Part shown: positions 28,472-33,743 of the stretch, piece after piece
Position numbering within the stretch: the first letter of the stretch is position 1
How the letters are laid out: each line of letters begins with the position of its first letter
Sequence record: LN881738.1
Direction: 5' to 3' (one strand)
DNA length: 41,318 nucleotides
Source: Clostridium phage slur17
Made by a program: the position numbers and the translations under genes
Notes under the pieces: generated by a model
The model's database searches: none
The model's input: only the letters and a program-made list of their open reading frames with translations
Told to the model about the DNA's origin: nothing

Positions 28472-30658
28472 CTACATAAAACCTTTTAATAACAATAGTT
28501 TTTCATCTTCATCTAAAGAGTTCAACATCCTGTCTTTTGTATATTTTATAGCATTTTCTAAACTCTTATCTTTTTCGTCTAATTCTAAATCTTTTTTTAT
28601 GTCATCTACAGTTATATATCTTTTTATATTATTAAGTTGTATTCGTTTTTTTTCAAACTGGCATGATATAGGATTTATATTTTTATAAAAAAACATAGTT
28701 TCTATATCATGCCAGTTACTATATTTTTTCTTTTCTATAATAAAAATTCCATTCAGTGTAACGCTTAGCTTTTTAGTTGTTAAATCCCAGTTTTCCCCTA
28801 AAATTGTTCTTAAGTCGTTACTTAACTCTTGTAAATGCAATTCTTTATAAGATGTTCCAATTCCAAACAATTTATCTATATAATTAAATACTGTAACTTG
28901 AATAAGTTCATCATTTAAAAACTCTGGATATTCCTCTTTTAATTCTCTATATATTAAAGTATTTATTTTATTAAATATTACCCCACGTCTTTTGTTTGCT
29001 GTATTCGCTAGTTTCCAAGCAAGGTCTAAGTCGAACTTATTATCTAGTACATAATTAGAATATAGTTCTAACATGCTATTACTTTTACTTTTCTTTACCA
29101 AATTATGTATGTCATACGCTCTGTAAGCCTCTAAGCACCCTTTTGAACTTAGTTTCATATCATTATGATACTGCATTAGTGAAAAGCTCTTAGAATCGCT
29201 TTTAATCTGTCTATAACCTACTAGAATTTCTTTATGTTCTTTTAAAATTTCTCTTGTTGCATCTTTAATTTCTTTTACAACTTTCTTGTACTCTTTTAAC
29301 TCTTTTTCATTTGTGCCAACTTCTTTAGCATCAGTTATATTAACATTTTCAAAATATTCTTCTAATAACACTTTAAAACTTTGAATTGTTCTTGTATTGT
29401 AATAGTTGCTGTAAACTTGACTTTTTATATATAATTTATCTACTTTATAGCAATTATCTTTTGTACAGTAGTACACATTTGAGTCTATGCGAATTGGCGT
29501 TGCATTTATTCCAACTGTTTCAAACTGTAACATGTGTTTAGATACTTTGTTATAAGCATCTTTTAAGATAGTTGCTTTTTCTATATTTTTGTTAACTAGC
29601 CATTCAATTTTGTATACATTGCACTCTTCTTCATATTTATTGAATATGTGTACATTTACTTTTTTTAAGTTTCTAAACCTTGCAACATACTGTTTTATAG
29701 CTCCAACATCTTTTATATTAACAATAATTATATCTGTGATATCTTTGTTGTTTATATTTACACCAGCTAGGATTGTTGTTGTATTTAAAAGCGTTTCATA
29801 GTCTTTCATGTCTGAATTTTTAACTATTCTATTGTACAATTCATTCTCTTCTTTTCCATCTGCATATACAACTCCAACTTTTTTGTTCACTGAATCTCTT
29901 ATAAATTCTAATGTTGATATATCATTCATCAACATGGCGCTGTTTTTAGATTTATTTATTATGTTAATCATTTCAGTAAAATTTTTATTGTCAAAGTCGT
30001 TGTACAATTTAACTTTATATTCTGTTTTTTGCTTTTGAGTGTACTCTATTATGTAGTCATATATTTCAAATTCAAGTTTTGTTGGTGTTGCTGTAATGTC
30101 TATTCTTCCTTTGCACTTAGACATTATATTATTTAGATTTTTTATTGCTTTTCCTCGATATGCATCTGTATAAGTTTGATGTATTTCATCAACTACAATT
30201 ATGTATTCACTTAAGTCTGTGTTTATAAGTTTTTCAGTTTTATCCCAAGTCATTACAACTAAGTTACCATTTTTAAATGCTTCGCTAACAGGTATTTTGT
30301 CATATGCTCCTGGTATATCATACTCGTGCATTGCCTGCTCCACATTTGAAGCATTTGGAAGTATGAATAACGCTTTTGTTTTTAATTTTTTTAATGTATT
30401 TATAAAGCTATAACTTTTTCCTGCTCCTGTCGGTGCAATAAACAGGGTTTTCCCGCCATTTATCGCGTTGGCTATAGCCGTTTTAATTCCTAGTTTTTTT
30501 TCGTTTATATATTTTTTTATTTCATATGTTTCATGTCTATTGAAATTTGAATAATTTTCTTTTTCATGCTCTGCTCTTTCAGCGCTACATTCTTCTAAAA
30601 ACATCTTATCTATATTATTTTTATTAACATTCTTCATCTTTATCCCTCCAATTTCCAC
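28472..30658 (-). CDS. SF2 (DEAH-type) helicase with uncharacterised C-terminal extension of about 350 aa
   Basis: Walker A FIAPTGAGKSYSF, Walker B/motif II VVDEIH, motif III ITATPT, motif VI-like QYVARFRN in the first ~380 aa; C-terminal half has no motif I recognise. Confidence 0.8.
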   Translation of the reverse strand: MEIGGIKMKNVNKNNIDKMFLEECSAERAEHEKENYSNFNRHETYEIKKYINEKKLGIKTAIANAINGGKTLFIAPTGAGKSYSFINTLKKLKTKALFILPNASNVEQAMHEYDIPGAYDKIPVSEAFKNGNLVVMTWDKTEKLINTDLSEYIIVVDEIHQTYTDAYRGKAIKNLNNIMSKCKGRIDITATPTKLEFEIYDYIIEYTQKQKTEYKVKLYNDFDNKNFTEMINIINKSKNSAMLMNDISTLEFIRDSVNKKVGVVYADGKEENELYNRIVKNSDMKDYETLLNTTTILAGVNINNKDITDIIIVNIKDVGAIKQYVARFRNLKKVNVHIFNKYEEECNVYKIEWLVNKNIEKATILKDAYNKVSKHMLQFETVGINATPIRIDSNVYYCTKDNCYKVDKLYIKSQVYSNYYNTRTIQSFKVLLEEYFENVNITDAKEVGTNEKELKEYKKVVKEIKDATREILKEHKEILVGYRQIKSDSKSFSLMQYHNDMKLSSKGCLEAYRAYDIHNLVKKSKSNSMLELYSNYVLDNKFDLDLAWKLANTANKRRGVIFNKINTLIYRELKEEYPEFLNDELIQVTVFNYIDKLFGIGTSYKELHLQELSNDLRTILGENWDLTTKKLSVTLNGIFIIEKKKYSNWHDIETMFFYKNINPISCQFEKKRIQLNNIKRYITVDDIKKDLELDEKDKSLENAIKYTKDRMLNSLDEDEKLLLLKGFM

Positions 30659-30724
30659 CTGGAGGCTGACGCTCTTTTTTTGATTTTTTGTAATAATTTT
30701 ACTATTAAAATTACCTTAAAACCA

Positions 30725-30753
30725 TTGTGTTTTTCTACACTTTGTCTTATAAT
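30725..30753 (+). promoter_or_regulatory. Sigma-A-type promoter (orphan; upstream of a structured non-coding region)
   Basis: -35 TTGTGT (30725-30730), 17-nt spacer, -10 TATAAT (30748-30753). Confidence 0.4.
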
Positions 30754-30759
30754 ATAAAT

Positions 30760-30866
30760 ATAAGTATAGAAAAACAAGGATATATTATCCTTAAGAGAGG
30801 TCTAACCTCCGGTGTAAGGAACATGGTTTGTTTGACGGCAAGTACATGTTCCTTGTTTATTTTTTT
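30760..30866 (+). ncRNA. Candidate small RNA of about 100 nt
   Basis: Downstream of the promoter above: short hairpins, then a 10-bp stem AAGGAACATG (30816-30825) / CATGTTCCTT (30845-30854) followed by a T-run to 30866; no ORF with a usable SD. Confidence 0.3.
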
Positions 30867-31006
30867 GTAGATTTTTTTAAACCAATTAAAAAAAAGTTTT
30901 CTGTTCGTTGTGATTATAATTATAGCACATTTAAATTATAAAAAAATATACTCTTTTTGAAAATAAATTATATTTTAAAAATATATTTTCTAAAATACTG
31001 CATTTT

Positions 31007-31039
31007 AAAAGACTTAGTATATAAACTAAGTCTTTTTTT
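31007..31039. terminator. Intrinsic terminator-like hairpin
   Basis: Perfect 10-bp stem AAGACTTAGT / ACTAAGTCTT with 6-nt loop, followed by T7; no protein-coding gene upstream on either strand. Confidence 0.45.
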
Positions 31040-31156
31040 ATGTAAATATATGTTATAATAATTTTAGCAAGAGAAAGCAATCTATATTCTAAAAAAAGAG
31101 TGGAGTCTATACACAAAAGATTATCCTCCCAACGCTACAAAGGGAGGTGATGAAGT

Positions 31157-31309
31157 ATGGATAATTTTTTACTTAATGTATTAGCTGGTGTTATAGCTAG
31201 TTTAATATTCTATATAATTAGCAAATTATTTAGACAAGTAAAAAACCACTCTGCGCAAAAGAGTGGTTGGGAATTTGATTTGAGAATCAAATTCAAAAAG
31301 TTTAAATAA
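31157..31309 (+). CDS. Small membrane peptide, type I toxin-like (50 aa)
   Basis: Hand-verified ORF MDNFLLNVLAGVIASLIFYIISKLFRQVKNHSAQKSGWEFDLRIKFKKFK with strong SD AGGGAGGTG 6 nt upstream; one hydrophobic helix then a Lys-rich tail; two hairpins in its 3' part. Absent from the ORF track (shorter than 60 aa). Confidence 0.5.
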   Translation: MDNFLLNVLAGVIASLIFYIISKLFRQVKNHSAQKSGWEFDLRIKFKKFK

Positions 31310-31361
31310 TTTTTTATTTTAGACTAAAACTCTACTCTTATGACTAGAATACAGTTCTCTT
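31238..31361 (-). ncRNA. Candidate antisense sRNA convergent with the toxin-like peptide gene
   Basis: Minus-strand promoter: -35 TTGTAT (plus 31392-31397), 18-nt spacer, extended -10 TGTGATATAAT (plus 31368-31378). Minus-strand terminator: stem 31244-31252 / 31260-31268 followed by T-run (plus A-run 31240-31245). Overlaps the 3' 70 nt of the peptide gene. Confidence 0.4.
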
Positions 31362-31454
31362 GCTTTTATTATATCACATTTTCTTTAAAAGATACAACTT
31401 TACATCATTTTCAGTATTCTATTTTTTTTATTTTTATCAAAGTTTATTTTAAGA

Positions 31455-31566
31455 ACGATAAAATTAAAAAACCACTCAAACGCCAATAAGAGTGGTTTAA
31501 GAAAATAAGTTATTTTTCAAAACATTGGAAATAGCTACTCTTGTGTAAAGTAAATCATTATTTCCT
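31455..31566 (-). ncRNA. Second, paralogous sRNA candidate with no intact partner ORF
   Basis: Near-identical promoter copy (-35 at plus 31599-31604, -10 at plus 31574-31579) and homologous terminator hairpin AACCACTC (31460-31467) / GAGTGGTT (31480-31487) with T-run on the minus strand; no peptide ORF on the plus strand opposite. Confidence 0.35.
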
Positions 31567-31761
31567 TGCTTTTATTATATCACATTTTTTAAAAAAAGAT
31601 ACAATTTTACATCATTTCTAATATACTAAAATCTTTACTTTTTACCAAAATTTGTTTAAAAAATAGGAGAAAACTATTGTTTTTGACGACCCGTCATGGT
31701 ATAATATATTTATAGAGAAGGAGGTGAGAAAGCAAAAAAATAAAAGAAAGGAGGAACGGGA

Positions 31762-31890
31762 ATGGGGAGATTAGAAAGAAGTAAAAAGAAAAGAGAAAAC
31801 AAATTTAACATAGTTAAAAAAGTTTTCTCCTTCATCCTATTATTACTTAACATAATCCTCGCAGTTCTAAGAATTTTGAAAGAACTGTAA
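31762..31890 (+). CDS. Small membrane peptide (42 aa)
   Basis: MGRLERSKKKRENKFNIVKKVFSFILLLLNIILAVLRILKEL; SD AAAGGAGGA 6 nt upstream; promoter-like TTGTTT-17-TATAAT at about 31676-31705; imperfect hairpin after the stop. Confidence 0.4.
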   Translation: MGRLERSKKKRENKFNIVKKVFSFILLLLNIILAVLRILKEL

Positions 31891-31964
31891 GGATAAGCCT
31901 AGAGGGAATAGCCCTTCTCTCTAGGTGACTTCTTTCTAATATTATAACACATTTCTAAAAAAAC

Positions 31965-32126
31965 ATGAGTGATAAATTTTATAAGATTTGCATTGTTTTA
32001 GTTTTGATAACTATAGTCTTAAATATAGTATCTATAGTATTAAACTCTAGTACAAGCAACATGCTCGGTTTAGTTTTTAGTGTTGTATTATTGCTTTTCT
32101 TTGTAATACAGCAAAAAAGGAGCTAA
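31965..32126 (+). CDS. Small two-helix membrane peptide (53 aa)
   Basis: MSDKFYKICIVLVLITIVLNIVSIVLNSSTSNMLGLVFSVVLLLFFVIQQKRS; no clear SD; its stop sits 3 nt before the AbrB-like gene start. Confidence 0.3.
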   Translation: MSDKFYKICIVLVLITIVLNIVSIVLNSSTSNMLGLVFSVVLLLFFVIQQKRS

Positions 32127-32129
32127 TGA

Positions 32130-32312
32130 ATGGAAAAAGAAAAAAGAGATTTAAAGTTTAACTTTCACAAAGGTGGGAGTGGGTCGTTTACTCCTAGAAT
32201 GAGTGTTCCTAAAAAATGGGCTGATGAAATGGGCATAACAAGAGAAAACCCTAATGTTACGGCAACATTCGAGGGCGACAGGATAATAATTGAAAAGGCT
32301 AAGAATGAATGA
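32130..32312 (+). CDS. AbrB/MazE/SpoVT-type DNA-binding domain protein
   Basis: 60 aa; TPRMSVPKKWADEMGITRENPNVTATFEGDRIIIEKA fits the looped-hinge-helix swapped-hairpin fold pattern; good SD AAGGAG. Confidence 0.6.
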   Translation: MEKEKRDLKFNFHKGGSGSFTPRMSVPKKWADEMGITRENPNVTATFEGDRIIIEKAKNE

Positions 32313-32399
32313 CTTTTTCTATAAAAGAAGGTTGCTTTTTTTCTTAGCCTTCTTTTTTTTAAATTTTACTATAATATAAAAATATTACTGTAATATTAT

Positions 32400-32585
32400 A
32401 AAAATATTATTTTAGTATTGTATATACAATATTTTAGTATTTTTAATATAATATATTGGTATTGTAAAAGCAATATGTAAATATTGTATTTATATTATTT
32501 GAATATTGTAATTAACAATATTAATATATTGTTGCAATATTATAAAAACAATACTACAATATTATTATAATATTATAAATATAAT
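32400..32585. repeat. AATATTGT-type repeat array upstream of parA (centromere/operator-like)
   Basis: Many direct and inverted copies of AATATTGTA / TACAATATT, e.g. AGTATTGTATATACAATATT, GAATATTGTAATTAACAATATT. Confidence 0.55.
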
Positions 32586-32591
32586 AATGAG

Positions 32592-33410
32592 GTGGAGAAA
32601 ATGGCTAATACAAAGCTACTTACGTACTTTAACATAAAAGGAGGTATCTATAAGACAACAACGTCTATAATGACAGCGTATGAACTTGCGAAAGATAAAG
32701 ATAAAAAAATACTCTTATGGGACTTAGATGTGCAAGCAAATCTAACACAATATGTTTATGAAATAAATCATAATGATAATACTACATTAGATATTTTAAA
32801 AGGGATTAGTGCTAATGATGCAATAGTCAAGTCACCTAATGAAAATTACATTAATGTAGACTTAATTCCTTCTGACATACAAATGGCTAGATTTGAACAA
32901 GAGCTATCACCTTTACCAGCCAGAGAAAAATTTTTAGCTCGCTGGTACATGCAAAACTTTAATACTTTGAGTGAGTATGATTATATTATCTGTGATTTAT
33001 CTCCACGCTACGATTTGACAGCTAAAAATGTGCTTTTCTTAGCAGATAGTATAATTATTCCAATTCAAGATAAAAACATTTCTTCTTTAAGAGGAGCAGA
33101 ATTATTTAAACAACTCTGGGATGTTGATAGAACCTATTTTGATAAGGAGGATAATATAAAAAGTACTATTTTAGTTGGATTTGAGAAGAAGAAAACTCAA
33201 ATTAGCGATACTTTCGATTCTTATCTGGAAGGGTTTAACGATATGAGAGATATTATGTTAGATACATACATTAGAAAAAATGAGTTTATAGAGAAGGCAC
33301 TATTAAAAAAACTATCTCTAACAGATTATACAAAAATAACTAAAGAGCATTTCAGCAGACAGGAATTTACTAATATGTTAGAAGAATTGAAAAGAAAAGG
33401 AGTGTTATAG
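32592..33410 (+). CDS. parA: ParA/Soj-family partition ATPase
   Basis: 272 aa; deviant Walker A KGGIYKTTT, A' motif LLWDLDVQAN, Walker B YIICDLSP. Confidence 0.85.
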   Translation: MEKMANTKLLTYFNIKGGIYKTTTSIMTAYELAKDKDKKILLWDLDVQANLTQYVYEINHNDNTTLDILKGISANDAIVKSPNENYINVDLIPSDIQMARFEQELSPLPAREKFLARWYMQNFNTLSEYDYIICDLSPRYDLTAKNVLFLADSIIIPIQDKNISSLRGAELFKQLWDVDRTYFDKEDNIKSTILVGFEKKKTQISDTFDSYLEGFNDMRDIMLDTYIRKNEFIEKALLKKLSLTDYTKITKEHFSRQEFTNMLEELKRKGVL

Positions 33411-33743
33411 ATGCCAAGTTTCAACAGAGACCTTTTAGTTGATAAAGAAAAACCGATTTTGAAAAATGGAACAATCGTACAAAATGATTCTACAACTACA
33501 GACAATAAGACATTAAACATATATAATCTAGTTAATAAGAAAAGTAAAAAAGTGACTATGAGTGCAACGCTTGATGAGGAGCTTGTAAACAAATTAAAAT
33601 CTTTTTCTATTGATATGAACAGCGACGTTAGTAAATTATTAAGTGATATACTAACTCAAATTTTATCTGATGTCACTATAAAAGAAGAGAATTTAAATAT
33701 ATACAATGAGAGAAATAGAAGAAATAAGACTAAGAAAAAGTAA
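33411..33743 (+). CDS. Putative centromere-binding partition protein (ribbon-helix-helix-like)
   Basis: 110 aa; start codon directly follows the parA stop; VTMSATLDEELVNKLKSFSIDMNSDVSKLLSDIL is consistent with a beta-strand plus two helices; basic C-terminal tail. Confidence 0.45.
   Translation: MPSFNRDLLVDKEKPILKNGTIVQNDSTTTDNKTLNIYNLVNKKSKKVTMSATLDEELVNKLKSFSIDMNSDVSKLLSDILTQILSDVTIKEENLNIYNERNRRNKTKKK

Follow-up and report, generated by a model that had tools for sequence, protein, structure and literature searches.

For two toxin-antitoxin (TA) modules of type I in C. difficile, CD0956.2/RCd10 and CD2517.1/RCd8, transcript ends have been mapped by rapid amplification of cDNA ends (RACE), which gave a 5' untranslated region (5'UTR) of 83-88 nucleotides (nt), a toxin mRNA of 298-306 nt and an antitoxin of 130-134 nt (PMC5961336). 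In the mapped modules the 3' end of the toxin transcript coincides with the 5' end of the antitoxin, and the ribosome-binding site (RBS) is sequestered (PMC5961336). Four modules of this kind stabilise plasmids and a prophage, and C. difficile antitoxins are highly specific, three mismatches being tolerated (PMC7699646). In a renewed scan of all C. difficile phages for toxins of this kind, Peltier et al. 2020 noted that a 1.9-kb region of phiCD38-2, which derives from pCD630 and includes parA, 'also carried a TA (gp33)' (PMC7699646). Here we describe the gp33 module in a 41,318-nt stretch of Clostridium phage slur17 (LN881738.1), called the window below, in which an initial annotation had noticed a type I TA-like module with a second antisense RNA copy. 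Our analysis confirms that description of the element and supports the type I reading. The identification of gp33 as a toxin and the proposal of an addiction role are therefore already in print (PMC7699646); for the antitoxin of the phiCD38-2 gp33 module the text consulted gives no description.

Judged by its sequence, the source DNA is a C. difficile phage-plasmid of the phiCD38-2/CDSH1 type. Positions 31000-31950 are 100% identical to Clostridium phage CDSH1 and to AR1075-1 and 99.8% identical to phiCD38-2, relatives of this piece occur in 57 C. difficile phage records, and the same DNA is on record as C. difficile plasmids, circular and 41.3-41.6 kb in size. In the phiCD38-2 gene order gp33 lies between the helicase gene and gp32, gp31 and parA, and dozens of C. 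difficile records, of phages and of plasmids, show the same TA layout. We conclude, with a probability of roughly 85%, that the locus is a canonical C. difficile type I TA module of a phiCD38-2-type phage-plasmid with an adjoining antitoxin unit of the short-toxin (S) type. The core finding mainly confirms that a type I TA module can be recognised from raw sequence.

The gp33 toxin gene and its predicted antisense RNA

The toxin gene gp33 is an open reading frame (ORF) of 50 amino acids (aa; MDNFLLNVLAGVIASLIFYIISKLFRQVKNHSAQKSGWEFDLRIKFKKFK) at 31157-31309 on the plus strand, preceded by the Shine-Dalgarno (SD) sequence GGGAGG at 31142-31147, which bears out the strong SD of the initial annotation. 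The search for similarity to known clostridial type I toxins, which that annotation had suggested, gave a match to NCBIfam NF047374 (CD_typeI_toxin) of 94.3 bits (cutoff 60; E = 4.2e-27). NF047374 is an equivalog-level model, and gp33 residues 1-50 align with profile positions 1-51 of 51, that is, over its full length. Residues 4-25 are hydrophobic and the C-terminal 25 aa contain 8 K/R and 2 D/E, so the hydrophobic helix and Lys-rich tail seen at first reading are present and gp33 stays within the family norm of 30-56 aa with a hydrophobic N-terminal helix and a Lys-rich, positively charged C-terminus. Homologues of gp33 were found by tblastn in 59 C. difficile phage records.

The predicted toxin promoter (31049..31059, plus strand) consists of the extended -10 element TATGTTATAAT, which is conserved in all related modules and is the sole plus-strand TRTGnTATAAT in the window. 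It has no good -35 element, and the -35 position coincides with the T-run of the upstream terminator. With the transcription start site (TSS) placed 7 nt after the -10 (A31066), the toxin 5'UTR would be 91 nt long (31066..31156). The same TSS rule predicts an 83-nt leader in the 53-aa modules of phiMMP01 and phiCDKH02, equal to the mapped 83 nt of CD0956.2 and CD2907.1. In the predicted leader fold the anti-SD CCTCCC (31125-31130, plus strand; CCUCCC in the RNA) pairs with the SD and GUCUAUAC pairs with the AUG region, sequestering both. If the toxin mRNA ends at the antitoxin start, it would be 296-299 nt long (31066 to ~31361/31364), with a 3'UTR of ~52-55 nt (31310..31364, plus strand) that is wholly covered by the antitoxin and complementary to two blocks of the leader, A and B, described below.

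The cognate antitoxin, sRNA-L, is a small RNA (sRNA) of the long-toxin (L) type, predicted from a terminator scan, the fold and the promoter to run for ~123 nt on the minus strand from 31361 to ~31239; the ~120-nt antisense RNA of the initial annotation agrees with this length. Its promoter (31368..31397, minus strand) has the -35 element TTGTAT (31397..31392), an 18-nt spacer, TGTGATATAAT and TATAAT at 31373..31368. This promoter had been called near-consensus: the TTGTAT, the 18-nt spacing and the perfect extended -10 stand, but the -35 elements of both antisense promoters match TTGACA at only 3/6 positions. A consensus scan missed both antisense promoters for this reason, and the strength of the antitoxin-L promoter rests on its perfect extended -10 with TRTG before it. 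The minus-strand terminator reported within the 3' end of the toxin gene was located as a hairpin at 31268..31244 followed by U6, inside toxin codons 30-38.

Folded as 126 nt, sRNA-L forms four hairpins with -30.6 kcal/mol (z = -4.43 against shuffles), and the sRNA and its promoter are conserved in the L-type relatives. Terminator-like sites numbered 3 in the 1.8-kb region, against 0.6 expected. All five occurrences of TRTGnTATAAT on both strands of the 41-kb window fall inside 30929-31951, and 6 of the 13 occurrences of TGnTATAAT in the window fall in 30927-31951. The interval 30929-31951 resembles a dense hub of promoters that rely on an extended -10; one of these motifs, at 30919-30929 on the minus strand, probably drives the helicase operon. 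The published RNA sequencing of CDHS-1 gave no information on the TA locus.

An overlap of ~70 nt between the antisense RNA and the toxin mRNA had been proposed. The 72 nt of coding sequence support this figure, but the whole 3'UTR is covered too, which brings the overlap to ~125 nt on the assumption that the toxin mRNA ends at the antitoxin start as in the mapped homologues. The predicted duplex of sRNA-L with the toxin-L mRNA has -198 kcal/mol. The predicted transcripts of the gp33 module have the geometry of the RACE-mapped CD0956.2/RCd10 and CD2517.1/RCd8, with a convergent antisense RNA, a predicted overlap of ~123-126 nt, an mRNA of 296-299 nt and a 91-nt leader; together with NF047374 membership this speaks for the type I architecture that had been suggested. 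Family membership, the promoter, terminator and SD-lock motifs, conservation and complementarity can all be read from the DNA itself.

In the mechanism that we propose, the promoter that relies on its extended -10 would give a toxin mRNA of ~296-299 nt encoding the membrane toxin gp33, and the local anti-SD/SD hairpin would keep its translation off. The convergent promoter would constitutively make the unstable antisense RNA of ~123 nt, whose complementarity to the whole 3'UTR and the final 72 nt of the coding sequence is predicted to be perfect and which would pair with the 3' 125 nt of the mRNA. By analogy with characterised family members, the duplex would then lead to RNase III-dependent decay of the toxin mRNA. 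On loss of the episome the antitoxin would be gone first and gp33 would then damage the membrane; since the antitoxin would be short-lived and the toxin mRNA long-lived, cells losing the episome are proposed to be poisoned, and this post-segregational killing may complement or back up ParA. In this scheme toxicity, RNase III involvement, half-lives and plasmid stabilisation are carried over from the homologues. The addiction-module role put forward in the initial annotation is the same as that proposed for phiCD38-2 gp33 (PMC7699646).

The second antitoxin unit and its relatives

Downstream of gp33 the antitoxin promoter and ~60 nt of upstream AT-rich DNA occur again: 31359-31455 is repeated at 31565-31663 (80.8% identity over 99 nt, E = 5e-19), within a tandem repeat unit that spans 31359..31663. 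The second promoter (31574..31604, minus strand) has the -35 element TTGTAT (31604..31599), a 19-nt spacer, TGTGATATAAT and a -10 at 31579..31574. It would drive a predicted RNA of ~104 nt, sRNA-S (31464..31567, minus strand; fold z = -2.6), which ends after a hairpin at 31497..31470 with a following U-run. On the plus strand, homology to S-type short toxins sets in just beyond the terminator of sRNA-S and extends from ~31456 to 31508, and the frame 31461-31508 holds the last 15 codons (KLKNHSNANKSGLRK, followed by the stop). This remnant has no promoter, SD or start codon, and no ATG-, GTG- or TTG-initiated toxin ORF accompanies the second copy. The duplication of promoter and terminator without an intact peptide ORF, as first described, is therefore real; the word 'degenerate', applied to the second copy, does not fit what appears to be an intact antitoxin gene of the other (S) specificity. 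The second unit is a complete-looking antitoxin gene of different specificity, whose toxin gene has been deleted to 15 codons. A longer frame in the second copy, KIQLYIIFSILFFLFLSKFILRTIKLKNHS..., was considered as a near-complete pseudo-toxin and discarded; homology with intact S toxins starts only at ~31456, the apparent hydrophobic helix is translated T-rich intergenic DNA, and the 39-aa string has no NF047374 match.

The two antitoxins share 85 identical positions in a 143-column alignment (59%), whereas within the RNA the cognate S antitoxin of phiCD146 has exactly the sequence of sRNA-S, an identity that runs from the terminator through the promoter, and that of phiCD506 is ~1 base off. 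Over the 107 nt compared, phiCD146 differs once and phiCD506 twice, an indel at the 3' edge of the RNA being one of these differences. The predicted duplex of sRNA-S has -164 kcal/mol with the S-toxin mRNA against -53 kcal/mol with the resident L-toxin mRNA. An S toxin gene that is broken in the window is accompanied by an sRNA-S whose promoter, body and terminator are intact and which matches the toxin of another element, as would be expected of an orphan antitoxin.

The intact short toxin, MVINFLLSILAGVISAFIYDKIKNHSNANKSGLRK, has 35 aa in phiCD146 and 32 aa in phiCD506, is preceded by an SD and matches NF047374 with E = 1e-12. CD0904.1 (35 aa), of the same 'short variant' class, was shown to be functional. 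The same 28-nt hairpin as in the second copy of the window, with the loop CAAACGCCAATAA, sits inside the intact short toxin gene in phiCD146, phiCD506 and IMG/VR contigs. Two scans of IMG/VR, with the S and the L hairpins, added 24 further contigs, and four layouts were found among the GenBank phages and these contigs: L only (phiMMP04), S only (phiCD506), intact L followed by truncated S (the window and phiCD111), and intact S followed by truncated L (phiCD146 and four contigs). The layout of phiCD146 is the mirror image of that in the window, with an intact S module and then an orphan L antitoxin.

Copies of the S hairpin were also seen in other surroundings. The exact 28-nt hairpin AACCACTCAAACGCCAATAAGAGTGGTT occurs in the large IMG/VR contigs L009, L012, L015 and L017 and in L008, L010 and L020. 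One such locus has a toxin-like frame without ATG, DELKYFINLNIATSLI[VA]CYIYDKAKNHSNANKSGFKR, and others have very short remnants, TAKNHSNANKSGFNEKN and QKNHSNANKSGSDDK. This suggests that many more decayed or orphan copies of the module exist in C. difficile mobile elements. In phiCD6356 (contig L003, 1240-1560) the orphan S unit after GATAAAATTAAAAAAC is replaced by unrelated DNA, ~300 bp long, in which AACTTTGCAGGACCTGCAACATTTCTTAAA occurs as a direct repeat, and this replacement shows the junction to be a recombination hot spot.

Predicted leader-3'UTR pairing and rival explanations

Within each module, the toxin promoter and the antitoxin promoter are followed by one and the same stretch of ~10 nt, which is specific to the type. 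This block A is AGCAAGAGAA in the L type (31066-31075, plus strand, in the gp33 leader), AGCAAGGAAA in the S type, AGTAAGGAAT in a third type and AGCAAGAAGA in the phiCD24-1/phiMMP01 type. Block B, AAGAGTGG with 6-10 type-specific nt (core GAGTGG at 31098-31103, plus strand, in the gp33 leader), is likewise common to both transcripts and varies by type. As both transcripts have these blocks and the antitoxin runs antisense to the 3'UTR, it follows that the toxin mRNA carries in its leader the complement of its own 3'UTR. In the minimum free energy structures of the full-length toxin mRNAs, a panhandle closed by these helices was predicted in 5/5 types folded. In 11 modules the predicted energies of leader-3'UTR duplexes ranged from -31 to -49 kcal/mol (z of -5 to -10), while dinucleotide shuffles gave -15±3 (0/300). 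Cross duplexes between the L and S types reached only about -20 to -26 kcal/mol; some other types cross-pair more strongly.

When motif-anchored ungapped blocks of ten modules from at least four sequence types were compared, 96.8% of the cells were paired, against 85% in shuffles (0/500) and 43-53% with slid partners; these counts come from related sequences anchored by hand. Helix A was 99% paired at positions 1-10 and 1/10 paired at position 11, and 10/22 leader-3'UTR pairs had changes on both sides. In the gp33 mRNA helix A would join 31066-31075 to 31355-31364, and helix B 31096-31107 to ~31328-31339. An automatic MAFFT/RNAalifold alignment of leader and 3'UTR was also tried, but the ends were misaligned and helix B was recovered only in part; the pair counts are less independent because the hand-anchored blocks replaced it. 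On these predictions the toxin mRNA probably closes on itself by leader-3'UTR pairing, a lock of the hok/AapA1 kind that would be mimicked by the 5' half of the antitoxin.

The key papers on C. difficile type I TA modules speak of 'highly structured' mRNAs and a sequestered RBS and mention neither long-range or fold-back pairing nor an orphan antitoxin. A literature search of incomplete coverage found no long-distance interaction in C. difficile TA mRNAs, the precedent being AapA1 of H. pylori. The half-life of the CD0977.1 mRNA is 89 min, against 8 min for its antitoxin RCd11, and only a fraction of this mRNA binds the antitoxin in vitro, being 'tightly folded' (Peltier et al., PMC7699646). 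A 5'-3' lock would explain both the partial binding and the long half-life of CD0977.1. If so, the covarying pairing could account for the long-lived, 'tightly folded' toxin mRNAs in general, and it would bear on the design of counter-selection vectors based on CD2517.1.

Some observations weigh against the interpretation given here. All RNA ends of the gp33 module are predictions, the scan found no clear plus-strand terminator at the expected 3' end of the toxin mRNA, both antisense -35 elements are weak, and an Rfam search with a permissive E-value over 30500-32600 gave no family near its gathering score for either sRNA. It is conceivable that the 50-aa ORF is an ordinary small membrane protein of the phage, for example holin-like, and that the antisense promoter and terminator are chance matches in AT-rich DNA; GenBank labels gp33 a 'putative membrane protein', PHROG 738, to which it belongs, has no assigned function, and promoter-like sites in the region numbered 14 against 10±2.8 in shuffles. 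This explanation is hardly credible, since the equivalog-level match to NF047374 effectively refutes it, toxicity and antisense control have been demonstrated in family members, and the convergent promoter and terminator are conserved across divergent phages and the TRTGnTATAAT motifs cluster here. As to the lock, should the toxin mRNA stop exactly at 31361, the predicted antitoxin +1, helix A would be reduced to 7 bp, and the arms of the lock are inverted repeats that gene conversion could homogenise. The complementarity might then be a by-product of an inverted-repeat origin, through gene conversion or shared promoter needs, without any function in the RNA. The two promoters are indeed alike (TGTTATAAT..AGCAAGAGAA and TGATATAAT..AGCAAGAGAA), and related rows in an alignment anchored by hand can inflate covariation. 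We rate this reading as less likely than not: the arms are similar only in sharply bounded blocks between which both sequence and length differ, the differences within blocks are mostly compatible with G·U pairs, and the pattern holds in at least four sequence types, with phiC2 keeping the inner block without the terminal block.

The orphan poses a separate question, and here its use against the short toxin of rival phage-plasmids with the same ParA and its origin as a recombination scar appear about equally probable. The region from gp32 to parA is 97% identical between the window and the S-only plasmids, and the N-terminal 184 aa of ParA are 100% identical between the window and phiCD506, so these elements probably compete for the same partition system. 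With an orphan antitoxin against the toxin of a rival, one element would be able to take the place of the other and the host would survive, and the mirror-image layout of phiCD146 is the outcome expected of such a conflict. On the other hand, there is an even chance that the second sRNA is a functionless scar, left when recombination produced tandem TA modules and the 5' part of the second toxin was deleted, with the antitoxin yet to decay. The region is mosaic, common promoter and hairpin sequences would favour recombination, and elements with L only or S only exist and apparently thrive. Of the S remnant, phiCD6356 retains just its first few bases, without the orphan hairpin, and one lineage (L028, L029 and L031), whose orphan promoter has an 18-nt spacer, lacks 1 nt in the terminator stem; the orphan, which is thus not kept everywhere, may be a recombination scar. 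Between the orphan L copies and the known L antitoxins there are differences at 5-13/127 positions, some of them in a 6-nt flank outside the RNA, which is more than the 3 mismatches tolerated experimentally. Against a scar, the promoter, transcribed body and terminator in the window are intact and the RNA is identical to a functional-looking cognate antitoxin elsewhere, the reciprocal arrangement of intact S and orphan L exists in a sister lineage, and essentially the whole antitoxin transcription unit survives in both arrangements. It is very improbable that sRNA-S instead serves as a back-up or auxiliary antitoxin for gp33, acting in trans through the common terminator stem and the AAGAGUAG motif. 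Both sRNAs have the 5' AAGCAAG, the AAGAGTAG block and the 8-bp terminator stem, and the -53 kcal/mol duplex with the toxin-L mRNA is in its favour, but the cognate duplex has -198 kcal/mol, the sRNA identity is only 59%, only cognate or near-identical (3-mismatch) antitoxins neutralised in published tests, and sRNA-S is an essentially perfect match to the antitoxin of a different toxin.

Joining the two parts, we put forward tentatively, while thinking it rather doubtful as a whole, a reciprocal 'antitoxin piracy' among phage-plasmids with the same ParA, combined with a family-wide 5'UTR-3'UTR lock in which the 5' half of the antitoxin acts as a competing leader mimic. If this is true, elements of the phiCD38-2/phiCD111 type would carry a long-toxin TA and an anti-short-toxin orphan, those of the phiCD146 type the reverse, and each could displace or outlive the other without setting off the rival's post-segregational killing. 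The orphan and its mirror phage offer a simple, testable system for studying anti-addiction and incompatibility conflicts of phage-plasmids in an important pathogen. Within a literature search of incomplete coverage, we found no report of a C. difficile type I TA with an orphan antitoxin or anti-addiction role, and none of a type I antisense orphan on a phage-plasmid directed against a rival with the same partition system.

Neighbouring genes and described systems

The location beside the partition cassette of an episomal phage, claimed at first reading, holds: ParA adjoins the TA region and the element has been deposited as a plasmid. The cassette (32592-33743, plus strand) encodes ParA of 272 aa (AAA_31, E = 4.5e-33) and then a 110-aa protein with an Arc-like/ribbon-helix-helix segment, which is likely to be the centromere-binding partner. 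Just upstream of parA lies a 60-aa protein (32130-32312, plus strand) of AbrB/MazE/SpoVT type with weak matches to Pfam MazE_antitoxin and TIGR01439; some plasmid records name it PemI or AbrB/MazE. With no toxin gene after it, the protein is perhaps a type II-like antitoxin standing alone, or else a regulator. Before it, at 31965-32126 (plus strand), a two-helix hydrophobic ORF of 53 aa without an obvious SD belongs to PHROG 11497 (category 'moron/host takeover'); it is annotated as a membrane protein in some relatives and unannotated in phiCD38-2.

Between the TA region and this ORF, gp32 (ORF 31762-31890, plus strand; 42 aa, MGRLERSKKKRENKFNIVKKVFSFILLLLNIILAVLRILKEL) has a basic N-terminus and a hydrophobic C-terminal helix, and may be a further toxin-like small membrane protein. 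It is served by an extended -10 promoter of its own, TGGTATAAT, at 31697-31705 and a strong terminator at 31897-31926, both on the plus strand. Its leader carries two SD-like sequences, it belongs to PHROG 5134, whose function is unassigned, and it is invariably found 3' of the TA region in the L-only, S-only and tandem layouts. Just downstream of its terminator, a third extended -10, TGTGTTATAAT (31941-31951, minus strand), points into gp32; the layout is convergent, as in the TA, and the motif is kept in all relatives. We considered this promoter-like copy as the source of an antitoxin for a gp32 'toxin' and rejected it, as it has no recognisable -35 and no minus-strand terminator, and 5'-3' complementarity is weak. 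The motif lies directly upstream of the ATG of the 53-aa ORF, so its conservation possibly has another cause.

The described systems closest to the gp33 module are those of C. difficile itself, CD0956.2-RCd10, CD2907.1-RCd9, CD2517.1-RCd8, CD0977.1-RCd11 and CD0904.1-RCd13, whose toxins belong to the same NF047374 family (Maikova 2018, PMC5961336; Peltier 2020, PMC7699646). The gp33 module is like them in its predicted convergent layout, overlapping 3' ends, transcript sizes, long leader and sequestered RBS, in its location on a prophage or plasmid and in its proposed role in maintenance. Unlike them, it lies beside parA on an episomal phage, not beside a CRISPR array or a cyclic di-GMP riboswitch, and behind it comes a putative orphan antitoxin belonging to the short-toxin type, which the key papers do not mention.

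In txpA/RatA and bsrG/SR4 of B. subtilis, a small membrane toxin of a prophage is controlled by a convergent antisense RNA at the 3' end of its mRNA, mRNA structure hides the RBS, and RNase III is needed for decay of the toxin mRNA. The gp33 module is predicted to share this layout, without sequence homology. In bsrG/SR4, binding at the 3' end remodels the RBS region, whereas for gp33 the prediction is a local SD lock in which the 3' end plays no part. In hok/Sok of plasmid R1 and aapA1/IsoA1 of H. pylori the toxin mRNA is closed between its 5' and 3' ends, which makes it stable and inert, as is predicted for gp33. There the lock sequesters the SD, 3' processing makes the mRNA active, and the antitoxin acts on the 5' region. 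In gp33, however, the SD would be held by a local hairpin, the predicted antitoxin is antisense to the 3' arm of the putative lock and has a 5' half that resembles the toxin leader, and the mRNA is not known to undergo 3' processing.

Anti-addiction modules and phage antitoxin mimics are represented by the chromosomal ccd acting against the ccd of the F plasmid, the pseudo-ToxI RNA of phage ΦTE and Dmd of phage T4. In each of them an antitoxin without its toxin is directed against the toxin of another element, as sRNA-S could be; the likeness is one of resemblance. Those systems belong to type II or type III, whereas sRNA-S is a predicted type I antisense RNA.

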